From Dimargaris cristalligena (Eukaryota), in NCBI GenBank assembly GCA_003614675.1, contig ML002319.1:1-42247 (forward strand): a DNA stretch of 42,247 nucleotides, read 5' to 3'. Below are positions 2,068 through 14,192 of the stretch, in pieces. Below the pieces are notes generated by a model that made no database searches, was not told the DNA's origin, and saw only the letters and a list, made by a program, of their open reading frames with translations. The position numbers and the translations under genes were made by a program. Every line of letters starts with the position of its first letter. The stretch's first letter is position 1.

Positions 2068-3828
2068 ATGAAGGGGCTTCTATGGGGTCTTGGTTTTGGC
2101 CTTTACATATCAGGGACATCCGCGGTATCCAGTTCTACTCTGGACCAGCCTGCTCACCCCCAGCCATCGTTGCCGGACCATAAACGTTTACTAGATTTGC
2201 CCCCCGAGATTCTTGACCTCATCGTGGATTATTCCTACCGAAGCTCCCGGGGGCCGATGGCCCTGGCGTGCAGACAACTGAACGCGGAGGTTTCAAATCA
2301 TCCCTCGAAGGAAATTCTAGTAAGCCCTTGCATGGATAGTGGTTAATCGATTATTAGGTTGTTTAAAGTCCCCATCTTTGGAGCATGGTGTGGCTCGAAT
2401 GGACCCTGCTAACCCAGTAGTACCAACTTAATAATCATCTGGACCGGTCTTTATCCTGAGTAGCTTTCTTTGGGTGGTTAGACTATGAACTAAACGTCAA
2501 TATTGCCAGCGTATTTTAGAATCCATTCTGAAATTTGAAATTTTGCGATTTTTACCTCATCTTTGGCCCCAAACCCACCCACCCCTCTCCGCTAGAAATT
2601 CTACTCGGTGTTTAGGAAAAATCTGGATAAATACAGGGAAGAATTCTACCTACCCATTCCCGATGCCCAGGGTCTAATGCAGGCATGGTCCCAGCTCCTT
2701 CACCACCAAATCAACAGCAGTCTATTCCTGACGGCATACGACCATTGGGAACAAGTGATCCATCCCATCTCGGCTTCCCTTACCCGGGGTACGAAAAATA
2801 CCCGACCCCCCTTGGTCACCCTGAACGCGGTGACGGGGTACTTTCTCAGTAATTACGAATCCCCCTTCTTTAAACGGGACGCCTGGTGGGTAATTAATCC
2901 GGCCCGCCTCTCCCGTACCCTCCTGGCCCAGCAGTTACCCCTGTTGGCCCTGGTGGACGCTCAACCGGACGCCTGCCACCTCCTCGACTTGATTGCCCAT
3001 TTAGCCGACCCCTCTCTACTGGATTTAAGCAGACGGGGCTGGGGCGCTACGGAACAAATCCAAGTGGAGGCTCTGCTCCGTACCCCTCACAGCGACCCGA
3101 CCAACCCGGTCAACCTTGGTCCTTTTTTTGACCACCTGTTTACGAATACTGTGTCGCTGGTTTTAGCGCGCCTGGCCACGACACGCCGTTTTAGCGAGCT
3201 GGGCGAGGTGATGCAGGGTCTAGAAGCCTGGGCCGAAAAGTATTGTGCGCCCCCCGCTTACTTGCACCCGGATATGTTTGCGGACACCGAAAGTCGGTGC
3301 AACCCGGTCGAGGTGTACCATAGTATCAACCGGCTGGCCCTCATGTTGGCCGCGGGGGCGCGGCACGTTCCTTTGTTGAAGGCCTTTACGGAAGTCTACA
3401 TTCGCCCTTCCTCGGCGATACCCGCCCACCGCATCGCCCAAGTTCAATGCGATTTCGTGCAATTGATGCGGCGGGCGGAATTGCCCCAAGCGGCCCAATT
3501 CTTGGTCCAGTATTGGGAGTGTTGTAAATCGCCGCCTGCTTCATCACCTCCGGAATCTGACCCGAACCCCGGCGGTGCTGAACAACCGGAAGAAGACCCG
3601 CCGATGATGTATAACTTTATCCCCCCCATGGGTCAGTTGCGTTTATTGGATAATAACGAAATGGGGGTTACGGTGTTTATATATGACTTTAAAAAAAGGG
3701 AAAGGGCCCGTACTTCGAATATGGGCCCGTGGTCCCTATTTGACTGGGATTTTAACCTGTTCTCGCCATTCGTGGAGCCCGATGGTTTGGACAGAATGTG
3801 GACGATGCACTCACCCAGTCTGCCCTGA
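2068..3828 (+). CDS. Putative secreted protein: signal peptide + F-box-like motif + lineage-specific domain (494 aa; exons 2068..2319, 2596..3828)
   Basis: ATG 2068 MKGLLWGLGFGLYISGTSAVSS (signal-like); LLDLPPEILDLIVDY...LACRQL at 2188-2292 fits the F-box pattern; donor GTAAGC 2320 and acceptor ccgctAG 2594-2595 join in phase 0 (..SKEIL|KFYSVFRK..); total 1485 nt. Confidence 0.85.
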
Positions 3829-4498: not shown

Positions 4499-6755
4499 AT
4501 GAGCGCATATGACGGTAAAATTCGCCCACTGGAGGCAATGCACTACCTCTCTTGTAAATAAACCGCCTAGCTCATTACCCCAACCCTATATGAGACCCCT
4601 CGAATTGATCCACCCTATGCCCATTTATTTTGTTTGTTGCTTTGCCTAACTATTCACTTGGCTTGCTTAAACCGCCCAACATGCACACCTCTCTCAATAA
4701 TAGTACCCACCCATGTGGGCCTACCCGCCCGGTATAGCGTAACCATGGCCGAAATCGATGGTCAATTGCGTAAGTAAGCCCGCTTAGGCAATGTTTAATC
4801 AATGCTCGCCTTACATCAGTCGGCCTCCGCCATTGTAGAATTATCCCGTTCATCTACCACTTTAGTCATCTCATTAATTGTTGGATATATACTACCACTC
4901 CCCATTATCAATCCAACCACTTCCCTTATCGCCAGTGCATCTCAATAACGGCCATGACTCCAAGGCTCTCCAATACATCCGCGCCGGTTGCCCGGCTTAC
5001 CCCCATTTAATGGTGCCGGAAAAACTCAATATGGAAACGTCAGATGCCCACGCGATGGCTCCCCAGTCCAGTCTAAGTTCGTCCTTCTCCATCTTCCGCC
5101 CCAACACCAAACGTAAACCCACGGCCGGCTCCACCAGCTGGATCGACTACGCCGGTGAGCAGCTTCTCCACTGGCTACAAGTCAAAGACGAAATCCTTAA
5201 CCGTTTTGAAGCCCTACAGAACCGTTACGTGACGCCCTACTTGAATATGCTTCAGCCGGCTGTACATGACCAGGCCCTGCCTAACCCACTGGTGGGCCCC
5301 GTTCGCCATTTGGATTGGCACCCCTACCGCCACTTGTTTAGCGTGTGTCACCAGGAGGACGTGGTTTTCATCTACGATATGGAACGCGAGGGTTGGTTCG
5401 TCAACGCCCTAGTACACCCCTTCCAAACCTATATCACCGGCCTGGCTTGGAAACCCAACGCCGGGAGTATTCTGGCCGTGGGGTGCCGCCAAGGGGTGGG
5501 TCTGTGGCGGGTGGAGTTGGATCAGGCGGTTAGTAACGGACCCCGCGAGACCCAGCCGTCCTTCGAGGGTGGTTCGCAATCCCTCCGGTTCCTACCCAAC
5601 GACGGCTTTAACCTTGATGATGGCGCATCTCCTCCACCCTCCACCTCAACCGGTCCTGCAAGAGGCGCTATCCATACGGGCCACGCCTGGCTCGACTTCC
5701 TCCAATTCCCGGGGTTTACCCACATCTCCTGCCTGGCCTGGGACCCCACTGGCCGGTACCTGGCCGTGGGCAGTTCCTCCCAGGCCACGATTTTGATCTG
5801 GGAAATAGCTACGGCCACGGCCACCCCACTCCGCCGCGTCCCTAATAGTACCACCGTCACGCTTACCTGGAGTCCGGACGGGATGTACCTGTGTTCGACC
5901 CACACCAACCGCCAGCTCCGCATCTGGGACGTATCCCGGTGGCAATCAGTGACCTGGTCAGATTTCCCCAGTTTTCCCCACCAGGTGGTATGGGCCCCCG
6001 ATTCCCGGTGCCTGTTCTTCGCTCTCCATAACCATAACGCCGTCTACCACCTGGTGTTGCATAAACCCCCGCCGGCGTTGGACGGCCAGGTCACTTGCTT
6101 GACCACGCTAACCCGCCAAAAGCTCGCGCCACCGCCGATAGTCACCAACGATGCCCAACTGCAGGCGATTGAATTGACCGCGTCCATTCAGGAAGTGGGT
6201 GGCTATATCCACTCCCTCGCCCTGGACCCGGCCTGCGGGGAACGATTGATCATTTCGTTTCGTCCCAATGACCGGGCCACCGAATACGAATCACGGCAGG
6301 ATAATCTGCGGCGGATTCGGCCCATTACCCAAGCCCCGGAACTCATCGCGGTACTACATGTCAAAAATCGGCTGGTCGGTTGGGTAGGCAATGTGGCCGA
6401 CCCCACTCTACCCTGTGGATTCATTCGGGGTCCGGCGGGTACGGAGGCTGCGGCCCACGAACAGGGTCGCGGTCCCATGGCGACTTGTCTGAGTTTCGCT
6501 AAACAGTTCGACCGCGGGGCCCTCTTAACAGTGGTAAGTAGAATCGCCTATGGAAAATGTGGACTTTCATCCATGCTTCCGGTCTATAGGGATAGTCGAT
6601 TGAATTAGCTATACTCTGAACCGTACTAACTCCGTCTGTAATAATTTTATCGATTTGCTTAATTAACCCGTTTACTTGAAAACAACTATATCTAGGCCTG
6701 GGAGAACGGCAAGATTTCGTTTATTCCGATGCTATTCAACAATCCGAGTCAGTAG
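4499..6755 (+). CDS. AAAS: Aladin-like WD40 nucleoporin (579 aa; exons 4499..4514, 4704..4769, 4936..6533, 6696..6755)
   Basis: WD40 repeats with Aladin-like features: LDWHPY, ITGLAWKP..LAVGC, ISCLAWDPTG..ILIWEI..TPLRR, LTWSPDG, GG.IHSLALDP..GERL, LPCGFIRG, C-terminal GALLTV|AWENGKISFIPMLF formed across intron 6534..6695; N-terminal SVTMAEIDGQL exon. All splice phases consistent (1740 nt). The two small 5' exons are less certain than the rest. Confidence 0.85.
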
Positions 6756-7932: not shown

Positions 7933-8049
7933 GTAAGTGGTCTCTTCCGAAACCGTTTGAGTTACCCCGATTTTACTATTCACAGCTATACTCGCCTTTC
8001 CAATGACTAAGCTCTAAGTTTCTTATTTCGCACATTATCTTTTCTGTAG
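7933..8049 (+). other. Probable 5'-UTR intron of the first Kelch gene
   Basis: GTAAGT at 7933, CTAA branch-like motifs near 8007-8016, pyrimidine tract and tgtAG ending 8049; upstream of ATG 8183. Confidence 0.45.
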
Positions 8050-8182
8050 CCAACTGCACCTGCTCGTACGCGATTCTCACTCAGTACCGCTAGTCTACCA
8101 CGCGCGGGTATCCTATCTCTCTAGTATCCCTTTTCAACCACTGCCCTGTACATACGCGTACATGTATATATATATTTGTTTT

Positions 8183-9784
8183 ATGAAGGGTAATAACCAC
8201 CTCTGGTTCCTCCTAATTGGCTGGGCGGCGTTTGCAACCGCCGGTTGGGCGGCATCTGTTTGCAATCGGGCGTACCATACCACTACTTTTATCAGTCCCC
8301 GCCTCTACATCCAAGGTGGGACCCAATTCTGCAATGATACCGGTGCCTCCCACAGCGATCAGCTCCTTGACTTCAGCTCGGATATCGATGTGGACAACCT
8401 GACGTTTCAATCCATACCCGTCCTGAACGCTTCGAACAGCAATTGGGGCTCGTCAGTGGCCATGGTAGCGTCGTCCATCAGTGAAACGGTCATTTATCAC
8501 GTAGGGGGCGGTCGGGCCAGCTCGACCGATACGGTGTCAATACCCTTTATCCATACCTACGACACAATCGAGAACGAATGGCTGGCCAAAAAGGATAGCC
8601 TCGAGTCGTATAATCTCATTTACCACAGTGCGGTCTGGTCCCCCAAGGCCGCCAAAGTGTTCGTTTACGGTGGGCGGAAGTCCAAAGAGCACAACTTGAA
8701 CGTTACTCTGGATCAGTTTTACGAGTACGATCCGCAGGAGAATAAGTTGGCCACCTTTAACAAACAACCCGAATCACCACCGGCGATGGCATCGCATAGT
8801 GCTACCATGATAAATGGTACCCATATGCTCCTGTGCGGGGGCATGGGCGATACCAATCCGATACCAACCAATGCGGTGTACCTGTTCGATACCGTTGGCT
8901 ATAGCTGGAAACGGATTTCAACCACCGGTACACCGCCTAAAAGTCTAGTGGGAGCTAGCCCCGTTTGTAAGTCTTACCGGTTGATATCTATAGATGGCCT
9001 ATTTGGATTCTTAATGGGGTCTATTTTCTCATGCGCTGCATCGTCTGTGCTGACGTACTGAGTAGGGAAGCGGGAGTCATTAGTGTACCATATGTCGAGC
9101 AAAGGTAGTCCTGGTCCGAACCTCACCATTAACCCGGTACGCTATTTTACCATTGCCTGTACCTACCACACGTATAAAGTGGTTCATGATACACTCATGT
9201 TCTACGGATCCGAGAGTGTCGCCAAAGAGGCATTCGACGGCTTCCCCACACTGAAGATAACCGAAACGGCCTTCACGTGGTATAAAGTTAAGCTGCCCAC
9301 GTCGCACCCCTACAAAGCCTCTTACTCGACCGCCCTCGTGGGGAAATATCTCATCAGTACGTTCGGTTATACTTCCACCAATGAGCAGGAAAAGATGCGC
9401 ATTTACGACCTGGAGTCTATGACCCAGGTCACTCGGGTCAGCAGCCAGGAACTCCTCGCTCCTCTTCCAGACCACGTCTTCCCGTCCTCAGAAAAGAGGG
9501 GAAAATCGGGTCTGAGCACTGGAGCCATTGTTGGGATTGCCGTCGGTAGTGCGGTATTTGTGGGGTTAGTTATAGGGGCAGTTGTACTATTTTACCGCCG
9601 GCGAAAAAACCAGGAGGTTAATTATGACGGGCTTTCGCGTAAGGACCGCATGCGGAGGGCCGACACGATGCGTCGCACCATGAATGATTTGGGCATTCTG
9701 CCCGAAGACGTCGATGTTAGTTTTGATCCGGATAACCCCCGCCAACCGGTAAAATTCAGTCGTGCGAGCGACGCCCGTCGTTAG
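8183..9784 (+). CDS. Kelch-repeat single-pass membrane protein (462 aa; exons 8183..8966, 9180..9784)
   Basis: Signal peptide LWFLLIGWAAFATAGWAA; Kelch motifs RAYHTT..LYIQGG, IYHVGG, YHSAV..VFVYGG, SHSAT..MLLCGG; donor GTAAGT 8967 and AAG acceptor 9177-9179 join ORFs 8162 and 9083 in phase 1 (ASPVL-VHDTLMFYG); TM GLSTGAIVGIAVGSAVFVGLVIGAVVLFY followed by RRRK. Confidence 0.88.
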
Positions 9785-12275
9785 CGCACTCCGGTATAGT
9801 TTTATAGGACTTTTTTTTAATAGCCCGTAATATAACTAACGGATTCATGGGCGCCTATAATGTTTTTTCTTATATTCATAGTGGTAGCCATCTGAAGTCA
9901 TTAGCAAAATATACTTAAGAACAGAAAGGCCGTTATATTATTTTGATTGAGGCGCAGCGTCTTTACTCCATATATCCCTGTTTGCACGTAGAATGACGTT
10001 TTCTTGAATACTGGCCTTTTCTTTTAAGTTTTAATACCTAATATACCCCTTTTTTATAGTATAATCCATATTTCTTCGAATAACCTTCTACGGTATATTA
10101 AGCTGGACACTGACACCCAGTCAACTTGTTTTTCTACCCCACATAGCTCCCTAAACCCAAGAGCCTTCTCGTCATCACTATAATTAAATCCGGTTTACGG
10201 AGAGACCATATCAAGTGTAATTGGATAAACGACGGCAATGCCTTAGTAACGCTGATTGCGCCTTACTGATGGTATTTCGATATATTCATCTATCCCAAGC
10301 CAATTACACAGCCAGTGGGGGTGTTGTCCAGTTATGGATTTCAAGAAGAGCATAAGATGACTTTACCCGAAGACATCCATTGCTCCCGATTAGGGTAGCC
10401 CGTTTTTCCTCACGTTATTTTCTAGACGTTCCCAAACTTGTCAGGTGAAGTAAACAAGTTCCAATGTGGCCGTGTTAATGCTGGGTATTGTTCCCACCAT
10501 AGTTGGAATAGACCTGGCATGCACTGTTGTGGGGTCAAGGGCGATTGACGAGACTCACCATGTTGACTATACAGTCCAGACCAGATAGTATTGCGGCCCA
10601 TGGAAAGCCGAAGGTACACCGCTAGGGATCTATACCAATTGTTTTCAAGGCCGGAGTTTTTTCCAAGCGGCAGATTGATGCTGGCCCAGGTCTCCCTGAT
10701 ATATTTTTTATAAGATTGCCAATTCTTCCACCCCTCACCGAAAATAGACCTTGGCATCCCCGAGTTACTTGGCGTCTAAACATATGGGAGAAGTTCATTC
10801 AGGCTGTATAATGAAAAATCCGTTGGATGAGGCCAATATTACTGGTTAAAAGCTATTCTGACATATGTTCGCCCATACACGTATTATGTAAAGCCTTATA
10901 CAGCTGGTTTGAATTTCATCCATATAGAACCAAAGAAATAGACGAGTTATTATTTTGCTACCTTCCCCGGGAATCCCACGAGTATGTTCTTGTTAGCTGG
11001 CCGATACTATTCCAACCCGCTTAAACCCCAGGCCAACAACCCCCCACTATCGAACGCCCCGGACAGGCCTTCATTTGTTCACAAAAACCCAGGGTAAATA
11101 TGGCCAACTTGGCCTATTGTACTTTTAAGCTCTCTCTCTCTCCCCGTTCTTTTGTTGCGGCATTCACAGTCATCGCTGCACACACCCTTTTTTCTGTGCC
11201 ATGCAGGTATTTAGGTGACCTGTACCTATTTACCCACTCATCTGTACCATTTCATTCACTCGTTATCTCTTGTCTATTCCAACCCGCGTTTTTCGGCACT
11301 GTCCCCTGAGCGGTTTCTTACCTGCCACCAGTCTATACCTGCCAATTTGAACGACCATTTTAGACGTGACCACCAATTATATCCATCCCCGAGTTCAAAC
11401 AGCGGTGTGGTAGGAAAGAAAAGGGGGAAAGTGGGGTTTCCCTCGTACTGACTAAACCTCGGGTTATTTAATAAAAATTAAGGTAGGGACTGGTCCTCCG
11501 GAACTTTATACTCAACCACTGGCCCCCCAGGGTTCACCCCACCCGCGCGGCCCATCGGCCTGTTCGGACTTTATTTATAATTATAGCTGACGTCGTTTGC
11601 CAATGAGACCCACCGGTCCCCCATTGTTGGCCTATCCCACAGTTGGTCTGAATGAGGGGGTGGGGTGTTGTTTTCTCTCACCTTATGTGAATTAGGTCAT
11701 CCACACAATAGCTGCTGATGAATGTGAGGATACGCCAACGCCCAAACCAAGTATTCCCCGTATTTCAGCAAGAGTGATGTCTCATCAGCATTACAGGGTC
11801 GATAAAAAGGACACATCCCTTCGCCTGCTGTCGACCCTTTTCCTGCCGTTTTTTTCCTTCACCAAGTAAAGCTTTATTTTGATTATTAATTGTGCACTTA
11901 GCACCGTACTTACCCTTCGTCATCTTGATTCTAAAATAGCTCCCAATGGGCTGGCTCACTGTTTTTAAATAATAGTAAAGGTACATTCTATGTGGCCCAA
12001 CTACCTTTTAATATAACCGCCCCCATCCTTTTCATTTTGTTCGCCGTGTCCCTTTTAATACAATACTGTATAGCTTGTTGAATTACTTTTCCGCTTTGGA
12101 TGGATATGAGGGGGCAAGTGTTTCGCCTCCTCTCCAGGGGGGAGAACCAGTTCTCGTCTACTGGGCATCTAACAGACCGATTAATTAATACTTGACTATG
12201 ACTATGTTTCCCCGCCTTCCCACTGTATTCTGCGTTCCCCCCACTCATAGTGGTTCGTCATCCATGTATATTCTT

Positions 12276-14192
12276 ATGCGGAGACCAACCGGTGCCAGTG
12301 CTCGAGGTTTACGGAGACTGAGTACAATAGTCCTTCTCGCCGTTTACGGCTGCGTTTTTTTTGCAAGGGCATCGGACCTGGAGGGACGGTACGGCCACCA
12401 AACGATATTCCACAATGATACCCTATACGTTCTCGGCGGAACACTTGGTCTAAGCTCATCACTAACTTCCCGGGCGTCCGAAGAACTAACCCTCGACCTT
12501 CGTCAGCCTTTCAAAGTAAGCGAGGCGAGTTGGAACGGCCAAACATTCGCCACGGGGGGTGCCACCACCCTGGATAATTTCTCGGCGACGCTCGTCCAAA
12601 CCAGCACTGGATCACGTGATATTCTACTGTGCGGCGGAACCGATCCGAGCACCAATCGGCTGAATTCGCAACTATGGCAATATGACTTCACAACCCCTCA
12701 GTGGCAGGGCTCGAACGTGGCCATTTCGAACCAAAGGACGCACCATTCAACTGTCTATTCGCCCTCCGAGTCCGCACTGTTAATATACGGCGGCTTCGCG
12801 GAATGGCCAGTCGACCCGACGCGGACCGATCCCAGTAACCAGCTAACTCGCTACTCCTACGAATCGGATAATTGGGAAGTTATGAAAACCTCGGGGTCCC
12901 AGCCACCGAAGCTATACAAGCACTCGGCCGTGATGCTAAACAATACCCACATGGCGCTGCTCGGAGGATTAACGACCAATGGGGATTCTGCACCAACCAC
13001 GTATCTCTACCTCTATAACGTTACGGGCTCGGCCTGGTCCATCGTCAACGTGACCGGTACTCTACCCGATACCTCATCCACGAGCGCCGTTATGTGGGGC
13101 TCCACCATTATTCTCTACGGTGGTCTGAGTAAGTCCAAGAATAGTCCTACCGATGAAGTAACCCTGGTTAATACACGCGCGAGCCCATGGAGTAGCACAA
13201 CCCAAAATGTAAATGGTGTCCCCGGACCGCGCTACGGCCATACCGCCACTCTCGTAGGTAGTTACATGTTTATCGCTTTTGGCAATACCGGATCGGGCCC
13301 GGACAACACTCTGGCGGTCATGGACGTGGCTAAATTCCAAATGGTGGATAATTTCGATCTCCGGAATGCCCAAGCAACTAGTGATGGTGGTGGTGACCCA
13401 GTCGACGGCTCCGATCCTAGTTCGACCGGTGGCCAAACGTCCCAATCAGGCCGATCAAAAGACGGTGGCCTAAGCACTGGGGTAATCGTTGGTTTAGTGG
13501 TAGGTGTTGTCGTGGCCCTAGCGGTCGTCATAGCCGTGCTGTGGTTTTGTGTCCGCAAACGCAAGAAGACCCAGTACTCCTCATTTAAATCGAACACACC
13601 CCCACCAGGGCTCGGTGCTTCTAGTCCGGAAAGTTCGGGAAGTGGGCCCCTCTATAAAGAACACCAGGTATCCACCGAAAGGTCCCTGCCTAACCCAGCT
13701 ATCCCATCTTTTCCGGTCCCCATCGAGTCCACTAGTCGGGAAGTTGTTGTTCCCCCAGAACCAACAGTCCCTTCGCCGTTTGCGACGGCCCCTGCCCGTA
13801 TCCTACCCCGAGCAGCATCGGAAGGTAACGATACCAAACCCCGGGAACCCTTTTTTTCTATTGATCGCGGTGTGGCCCGGGGGAAATCACTCGATGCCCG
13901 TGATGCCTCGTGGCCTACCATGTCAGCGACGGCTCCGAGTGGCCATCGAATCAGTGGACTGTCGTTGCCCCGCACCCTTCCGGAGGGATTCAGTCTACCC
14001 GAAGGCCCTAGTTTCCAGCCGGTAACTAAAAGCGATTCTTATGGGCCCGACGATGGTAGTACCTGTCCCCTCGATGGCGTTGAAGTTCAGACCGTGGCTT
14101 TTCGGAAAGTTCGATTATATACCATGAGCTCCAACAATCCCAGACCTGAGCGAGTAATCCACGAAGGAGCTCCGCCAGCTTCCGTATCTTAA
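12276..14192 (+). CDS. Kelch-repeat single-pass membrane protein with long Pro/Ser-rich cytoplasmic tail (start could be 12264 or 12276)
   Basis: Signal IVLLAVYGCVFFARA; Kelch motifs RYGHQT..LYVLGG, ILLCGG, RTHHST..LLIYGG, YKHSAV..MALLGG, IILYGG, PRYGHTATLVGSYMFIAFG; TM GLSTGVIVGLVVGVVVALAVVIAVLWFCV followed by RKRKK; intronless ORF. Confidence 0.9.
   Translation: MRRPTGASARGLRRLSTIVLLAVYGCVFFARASDLEGRYGHQTIFHNDTLYVLGGTLGLSSSLTSRASEELTLDLRQPFKVSEASWNGQTFATGGATTLDNFSATLVQTSTGSRDILLCGGTDPSTNRLNSQLWQYDFTTPQWQGSNVAISNQRTHHSTVYSPSESALLIYGGFAEWPVDPTRTDPSNQLTRYSYESDNWEVMKTSGSQPPKLYKHSAVMLNNTHMALLGGLTTNGDSAPTTYLYLYNVTGSAWSIVNVTGTLPDTSSTSAVMWGSTIILYGGLSKSKNSPTDEVTLVNTRASPWSSTTQNVNGVPGPRYGHTATLVGSYMFIAFGNTGSGPDNTLAVMDVAKFQMVDNFDLRNAQATSDGGGDPVDGSDPSSTGGQTSQSGRSKDGGLSTGVIVGLVVGVVVALAVVIAVLWFCVRKRKKTQYSSFKSNTPPPGLGASSPESSGSGPLYKEHQVSTERSLPNPAIPSFPVPIESTSREVVVPPEPTVPSPFATAPARILPRAASEGNDTKPREPFFSIDRGVARGKSLDARDASWPTMSATAPSGHRISGLSLPRTLPEGFSLPEGPSFQPVTKSDSYGPDDGSTCPLDGVEVQTVAFRKVRLYTMSSNNPRPERVIHEGAPPASVS

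Follow-up and report, generated by a model that had tools for sequence, protein, structure and literature searches.

A multigene family of Dimargaris cristalligena joining signal-type N-termini and an F-box-like module to an all-alpha domain: candidate secreted effectors

The 42,247-nucleotide stretch of Dimargaris cristalligena DNA analyzed here (contig ML002319.1 of assembly GCA_003614675.1, forward strand; referred to below as the window) carries near its left end a two-exon gene whose predicted product combines a signal-peptide-like N-terminus, an F-box-like motif and a large helical domain. The features of the locus are collected in Table 1. Exon 1 translates to MKGLLWGLGFGLYISGTSAVSSS..., after which come a short linker and LLDLPPEILDLIVDYSYRSSRGPMALACRQLNAEV (residues 41–75), the Gly-rich hydrophobic N-terminus being followed by LLDLPPEILDLIV..., and the spliced product is 494 amino acids long. 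The intron contains two yUnAy-type branch candidates (with the A at 2554 and at 2559), and there are stops within it in the frame of exon 1. An earlier note on this DNA, made from the sequence alone, had given these exon coordinates and frames and had quoted the residue 41–75 peptide, all of which are confirmed by the sequence and its translation; exon 2, which it described as a large unknown domain, is indeed a 410-amino-acid open frame that has no match in Pfam and no leucine-rich repeat (LRR).

The joining of the two exons was evaluated by scoring alternative splices against a hidden Markov model (HMM) of 17 full-length paralogs, taken from about 27 clusters whose models extend upstream of the domain and with the window's own sequences excluded. 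All in-frame, stop-free GT..AG pairs with a donor at 2200–2346 and an acceptor at 2400–2760 were considered, 20 in all. There are several points in favor of the junction at 2319|2596. First, donor 2320 with acceptor 2595, the join proposed in the earlier note, is the best-fitting of the 20 with 371.6 bits, as against 357.1 bits for the runner-up, 323.1 bits for exon 2 alone and 32.0 bits for exon 1 alone. Second, the spliced product gives a single continuous match over the junction (residues 22–485, HMM positions 64–508), so that homology to the family is full-length and extends over both exons. Third, the last residues of exon 1 (..NHPSKEIL) run on without a gap into the first of exon 2 (KFYSVFRKNLDK..) in the alignment with paralogs, among them P0031, P0011 and P0023. 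The family match of exon 1 is more than chance, because it scores 32.0 bits on its own against a model built from paralogs only and also contributes to the best of the 20 splices. With exon 1 as query against database proteins of 148–2000 amino acids, none of 66 candidates matches at E≤10, and since no protein in that size range contains exon 1 there is no independent annotation that joins the exons. Judged by comparison with the paralogs, the junction is very probably correct.

The best database match to exon 2 is a 269-amino-acid 'hypothetical protein BJ085DRAFT_33160 [Dimargaris cristalligena]' (P0003), a public gene model at positions 2687–3828 of the plus strand. It starts in a different frame, is without exon 1, and splices out two stretches that are conserved among the paralogs, around LPLLALVDAQPD and QLRLLDNNEMGV. 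On account of this different start frame and the removal of family-conserved blocks as introns the model was rejected, and from the sequence comparison we judge it to be a mis-model. N-terminal truncation also affects many of the paralog models of the two available assemblies (e.g. P0007 with 373 amino acids against 629 for P0047, and P0010 with 374 against 501 for P0049). Secretome counts for D. cristalligena probably miss much of this family.

A second family member, P0004, lies immediately to the left on the same strand (Table 1). Its reading frame is open from base 38, and its signal/F-box exon would therefore be expected past the left contig end. As P0004 is a tandem copy, at least part of the family is arranged in tandem.

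A profile made from exon 2 together with two paralogs, searched against 1.84 billion cluster representatives, yields 37 of them at E≤0.001. In the 30 clusters that were looked up every record is from D. cristalligena (two assemblies), and P0003, P0005 and P0006 also carry the name of that species, so that it accounts for 33 of the 33 clusters with a named source (P0004 is the window's own tandem copy, and P0035, P0037 and P0038 fall outside the look-up). Among the sequences searched, the multigene family comprises at least 37 clusters and is seen in no species but Dimargaris cristalligena, which is a stronger finding than the single-gene observation of the earlier note. The family plan consists of a signal-type N-terminus, a variable disordered linker, an F-box-like module of about 40 residues and an all-alpha domain of about 400 amino acids; the architecture first described for the window gene alone (a signal-like N-terminus, an LPxEIL motif and a large unknown domain) thus recurs in many paralogs.

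The 37 clusters were classed by the longest model in each, with four automatic calls corrected by eye (in P0027 and P0035 a motif of the domain had been called as a signal, and in P0056 and P0057 an LPKG inside the domain had been called as the motif). A strong signal-type N-terminus together with the LPxE motif is present in 17 of the 37, and two more, including that of the window gene, have the motif with a weak signal (hydropathy 1.46–1.55). The motif is present in two clusters whose model has no N-terminus or a truncated one, six clusters have a signal and no recognizable motif, and in ten the model breaks off within the domain or at a contig end. Among the 27 informative clusters, i.e. 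those with a model that extends upstream of the domain, a strong signal-type N-terminus is found in 23 and an LPxE(L/I) motif in 21. The C-terminal part has a significant Pfam domain in none of 50 scanned paralog models, with the exception of P0060 (718 amino acids, in the cluster of P0028), which bears the UniRef name 'Cytochrome P450' and has a P450 fragment at residues 622–683 (E=1.8e-7) that probably reflects an artefactual gene fusion in the model. The UniRef name 'DUF1800' given to P0039 is not reproduced by Pfam at E≤1 and was set aside.

The N-terminus of the window protein, MKGLLWGLGFGLYISG, has five glycines in 16 residues, a best 10-residue Kyte-Doolittle mean of 1.55, an uncharged run spanning residues 3–25 and an n-region charge of +1, in keeping with its first description as Gly-rich and only moderately hydrophobic. 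It occupies the equivalent place in the family alignment to the N-termini of the paralogs, for which a signal was called at a 10-residue hydropathy of 1.75 or more, the thresholds being those set by this analysis. In the 23 clusters with a strong signal the best 10-residue values are 1.79–3.17 and the uncharged runs are 11–15 residues long, with a net positive n-region and with small residues followed by A-P (VVS-AP, ATA-AP, ASA-AP). By the rules of membrane topology, including the positive-inside rule, a short h-region behind a positive n-region favors a cleaved signal over a membrane anchor, and the paralog N-termini look like cleavable signal peptides rather than anchors. We infer that the proteins are secreted, an assignment that is well supported for the family and weaker for the window copy. 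A dibasic KR is present at residues 39–40 (2182–2187), four residues upstream of the motif's LP; it was considered as a Kex2 site and dropped, the paralogs having mostly a single R or K nearby (DRLxTLP, NRLTTLP).

An AlphaFold2 model of the paralog P0005 is almost all helical, with a predicted local distance difference test score (pLDDT) of 78.4 and a predicted template modeling score (pTM) of 0.74; it was made from an alignment of 37 rows in which P0003 and P0038 were left out and the longer P0045 and P0046 replace P0029 and P0033. A Foldseek search with this model finds no match in the PDB at E≤0.001, the whole-family profile has a single, unrelated match among PDB sequences (E=0.23), and a search of the ESM Atlas with exon 2 gave nothing useful. 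P0005, P0006 and P0047 have an extra helical hairpin of about 100 residues (121–216) between the motif and the core domain, which the window gene does not have. Because this hairpin filled both VIA searches of the P0005 model, the core domain was barely tested by fold search. Exon 2 is thus predicted to encode a family-specific all-alpha domain without a recognized fold, an assignment that is weakly tested.

Two cysteines of this domain (Cys 285 and Cys 309 of exon 2) covary within the family. At the corresponding columns, 731 and 760 of alignment A2, both cysteines are present in 25 of the 35 rows that cover both columns, neither in nine, the first only in one and the second only in none (Fisher p=1.4e-7, uncorrected for relatedness, the nine losses being spread over several subgroups). 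The columns sit in a C-terminal helical hairpin; in P0005, which is without the pair, the equivalent residues 451 and 475 are predicted to be in and just after two adjacent antiparallel helices (443–459 and 463–473). It is probable, given this pattern of gain and loss, that the pair forms a disulfide, and the covariation therefore lends independent, though indirect, support to passage through the secretory pathway.

The F-box-like module lies between these two parts. Its consensus is LPxE[LI]xxxI ... L..TSK over about 40 residues, and within the family alignment P45 shows no variation, while conservation at E47 and L64 is 90% or more. The motif of the window protein (residues 42–76) is followed by the separate 410-amino-acid domain, an order that is the same in the paralogs; F-box adaptors usually have an N-terminal F-box followed by a C-terminal domain. 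Comparison was made with the Pfam profiles PF00646, PF12937 and PF13013, using their curated gathering cut-offs. P0021 and P0043, which represent one cluster, pass PF00646 with 22.0 and 21.9 bits against a cut-off of 20.5 (E=1.4e-4), and there are sub-threshold F-box matches in P0038 (E=0.0021), P0019 (E=0.0068), P0049 (E=0.13) and P0051 (E=0.18); the other scanned paralog models have no F-box match. The F-box-clan matches, in six clusters, all begin at the LP and at profile position 1–2. The only match of another Pfam family to the motif region is that of UPF0223 to P0029, at E=0.13. Eight clusters carry the automatic UniRef name 'F-box domain-containing protein', and in the ESM Atlas F-box clusters are among the neighbors of residues 36–84 at 0.86–0.88, which is below the 0.9 level and is taken as a lead only.

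Several observations weigh against reading the protein as a secreted F-box adaptor. First, the window protein does not reach the profile cut-offs: F-box-like_2 (PF13013) matches residues 29–65 with E=0.0025 and 18.3 bits, below its cut-off of 21.6, and F-box-like (PF12937) matches residues 42–76 with E=0.011 and 15.9 bits, below its cut-off of 24.3. The earlier note had called the motif F-box-like and had named such a profile search as a check; the recurrence of LPxE(L/I) through the family bears out the motif, but the search itself did not place the window protein within either Pfam family. Second, the two closest full-length paralogs (P0005 and P0006) give no F-box match even at E≤10. Third, the family N-terminal profile has 10 matches among PDB sequences at E≤10 and none is an F-box protein (the module is short and sensitivity is low), while the window protein (P0001) and P0021 as single queries each have one unrelated match. 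Fourth, the predicted structures do not clearly resemble an F-box. The AlphaFold2 model of exon 1 (of low overall confidence, with a pLDDT of 65.5, and 76–87 in the motif; helices at 46–57, 61–76 and 80–83) appears as two long helices and a short one with no clear three-helix F-box; Foldseek with this model finds no match in the PDB, and the VIA wide search finds nothing at Z≥5 (best Z 4.0, no F-box). The motif region of the P0005 model is predicted to form a 20-residue helix (89–108) and a second helix (112–119). Fifth, there are the six clusters with a signal peptide and without a recognizable motif. Finally, the signal segment of the window copy, at 1.55, is the second weakest in the family, and a structural disulfide would suit an extracellular protein at least as well as one in the reducing cytoplasm of a host cell. 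On balance the motif is probably homologous to the F-box, as far as sequence can tell; that the module binds Skp1 has a probability well below that of the homology. We therefore refer to the protein as F-box-like and not as an F-box protein, membership being not proven from the sequence.

Dimargaritales are described, in passages of PMC9866270, as parasitizing other fungi by means of an appressorium and a biotrophic haustorium. Because D. cristalligena is a haustorial biotroph of other fungi, an effector delivered into the host is a sensible idea, and a chain of four steps can be proposed in which each later step is more speculative than the one before. First, the protein would enter the endoplasmic reticulum (ER) and be secreted, which is well supported for the family and weaker for the window copy. 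Second, at the haustorial interface it would reach the cytoplasm of the fungal host, as the haustorial lifestyle might lead one to suppose. Third, the F-box-like module would bind host Skp1, as the weak profile similarity might indicate. Fourth, the variable helical domain would select host proteins for ubiquitination dependent on the Skp1–cullin–F-box (SCF) ligase, as suggested by the layout of the proteins and the divergence of the family; a wide variety of targets would in that case explain how large and how divergent the family is. Taken as a whole, the chain, by which the window gene would encode a candidate effector, secreted and mimicking an SCF adaptor, is the leading explanation, which we put forward tentatively. 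A bolder formulation is that these proteins are secreted SCF-adaptor mimics, the first such repertoire in a fungus and also the first to serve in fungus-on-fungus parasitism, with some three dozen paralogs that join a minimal F-box to a new disulfide-stapled helical domain, are delivered through haustoria into Mucorales hosts and mark different proteins there for degradation; in this full form it is rather unlikely.

The main alternative accepts secretion and gives the module another role: the LPxE(L/I) helices would be an N-terminal cap, a dimerization module or an uptake module, either derived from an F-box or resembling one, and the protein, not engaging Skp1, would act outside the host cell (in the haustorial matrix or at the cell wall) or within the host independently of Skp1. 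The evidence from the signal peptides and the Cys pair serves this account equally. It also accommodates the sub-threshold F-box scores of most members and the lack of any F-box in the PDB sequence and fold searches, and the six clusters that keep signal and domain without the motif imply that the domain may work alone. However, the weak matches in six clusters are all to the F-box clan and in the same register, the invariant Pro and near-invariant Glu are at hallmark positions of the F-box, and no other Pfam family claims the motif region except for the one UPF0223 match. We consider this account possible, if doubtful.

An improbable alternative is that the proteins are not secreted at all, the N-terminus being a membrane anchor or non-functional and the protein serving as an SCF adaptor of the parasite itself within the parasite's cytoplasm (e.g. 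on the surface of the ER or another organelle). F-box proteins are established as normally cytosolic or nuclear, and the moderate hydrophobicity of the window N-terminus (1.55) could be read in this way. Against it, the hydrophobic runs of the paralogs, at 11–15 residues, are too short to span a membrane, the positive n-region would leave the remainder of the protein on the lumenal side, and the runs end in small residues of the AxA type; moreover, the covariation of the Cys pair fits an oxidizing compartment, and a divergent family confined to one species would be unusual for housekeeping adaptors. Least probable is an incorrect gene model or an inactive locus (exon 1 being a separate small open reading frame, the splice a different one, or the gene a decaying paralog), since, although the exon join rests on sequence comparison, no database protein contains exon 1 and P0003 omits it, exon 1 is homologous to paralog N-termini (32.0 bits), the join is gap-free and ranks top of 20, both exons are open without a frameshift, and P0003 skips conserved blocks including LPLLALVDAQPD and QLRLLDNNEMGV.

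Beyond the tandem pair, the genes to the right in the window resemble ordinary housekeeping genes (Table 1), and, the pair apart, nothing nearby resembles an effector cluster.

Table 1. Features of the two-exon gene, its tandem copy and, as side observations, the neighboring genes (positions are those of the window).
Feature	Position	Strand	Remarks
Exon 1	2068..2319	+	252 nt, 84 codons, phase 0; ATG at 2068; ends before GTAAGC; holds signal-like N-terminus, linker and F-box-like motif; aligns with paralog N-terminal regions
Signal-peptide-like segment, residues 1–20, MKGLLWGLGFGLYISGTSAV	2068..2127	+	n-region Lys, Gly-rich h-region, small residues TSA/VSS
F-box-like motif, residues 42–76, LDLPPEILDLIVDYSYRSSRGPMALACRQLNAEVS	2191..2295	+	aligned to positions 2–36 of 47 of the Pfam F-box-like profile
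Intron, 276 nt	2320..2595	+	GTAAGC donor, C/T-rich tract, TAG acceptor at 2593–2595
Exon 2	2596..3828	+	410 codons and stop (3826–3828), no frameshift
Cys 285 of exon 2 (product residue 369)	3448..3450	+	first of the covarying Cys pair
Cys 309 of exon 2 (product residue 393)	3520..3522	+	second of the covarying Cys pair
Tandem paralog P0004	83..1345	+	420 amino acids as modeled, 37% identical to exon 2 (tblastn)
Aladin-type WD40 propeller	4878–6608	+	
Kelch-repeat protein, first	8018–9784	+	split between adjacent frames, pointing to a short intron or frameshift
Kelch-repeat protein, second	12189–14192	+	
Adenylate kinase	26911–28170	-	
YCII-domain protein	35221–35769	-	
Class-V aminotransferase, cysteine desulfurase-like	40818–41930	+	

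The interpretation offered in the earlier note, a secreted effector that recruits host SCF ligases, is plausible and unproven at its key step; the observation behind it is confirmed and broadened from one gene to a family. Almost nothing is known of how biotrophic mycoparasites control their fungal hosts, and the family provides a concrete and testable hypothesis, namely that a ubiquitin ligase of the host is hijacked. If this were true, F-box effector mimicry, already described for bacteria, viruses and a gall midge, would also occur in parasitism of fungus on fungus and would involve a target-binding fold that is new. Should the module not bind Skp1, the family would still be an unannotated group of secreted proteins with a new domain. 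In either case, current gene models of D. cristalligena miss signal-peptide exons. A literature search on Dimargaris cristalligena with F-box, and on haustorial F-box effectors of mycoparasites, found nothing in print on the family, and the term 'F-box' is absent from the main text of PMC9866270, PMC6784888 and PMC9391592.

Comparison with known systems begins with the ordinary F-box proteins of fungi (PF00646, PF12937, PF13013), which the Dimargaris family resembles in the LPxE(I/L) start, in helical content and in the N-terminal position of the module before a substrate-binding domain. There are two differences. First, ordinary F-box proteins reside in the cytosol or nucleus and lack a signal peptide, in contrast to the signal-type N-terminus of 23 of the 27 informative clusters. 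Second, the Dimargaris family scores below the profile cut-off in all but one cluster.

Bacterial F-box effectors offer a second comparison, and Agrobacterium VirF and Legionella AnkB are examples in addition to the GALA proteins of Ralstonia. VirF, AnkB and GALA/RipG7 are bacterial and use type III or type IV secretion, unlike the Dimargaris family with its eukaryotic ER signal-type N-terminus; they have LRR or ankyrin domains, and their F-boxes are recognizable by standard profiles, in contrast to the sub-threshold motif of the window protein. The N-terminal F-box of RipG7, a GALA protein of Ralstonia solanacearum, is described in parts of PMC4617103 as binding SKP1-like proteins of the host and as being needed for virulence.

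The third comparison is with the SSGP-71 proteins of the Hessian fly (Mayetiola destructor), which carry a secretion signal. Like the Dimargaris family these belong to a eukaryotic parasite, form a large lineage-specific expansion, and have an N-terminal F-box with a variable C-terminal target-binding domain, and some SSGP-71 members have no F-box. They differ in that their C-terminal parts are LRRs, whereas the Dimargaris family has an unrelated all-alpha domain with no LRR or Pfam match; their host is a plant rather than a fungus; and Skp binding is shown for SSGP-71 and is only proposed for the Dimargaris family. Both SSGP-71 and RipG7 are presented, in the same parts of PMC4617103, as F-box effectors that bind Skp1-type proteins of the host. 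The resemblance of the Dimargaris family to SSGP-71 and the GALA-type F-box-LRR effectors would lie in the proposed way of working only, and by that analogy SSGP-71 appears to be its nearest counterpart, with bacterial F-box effectors such as RipG7 next.

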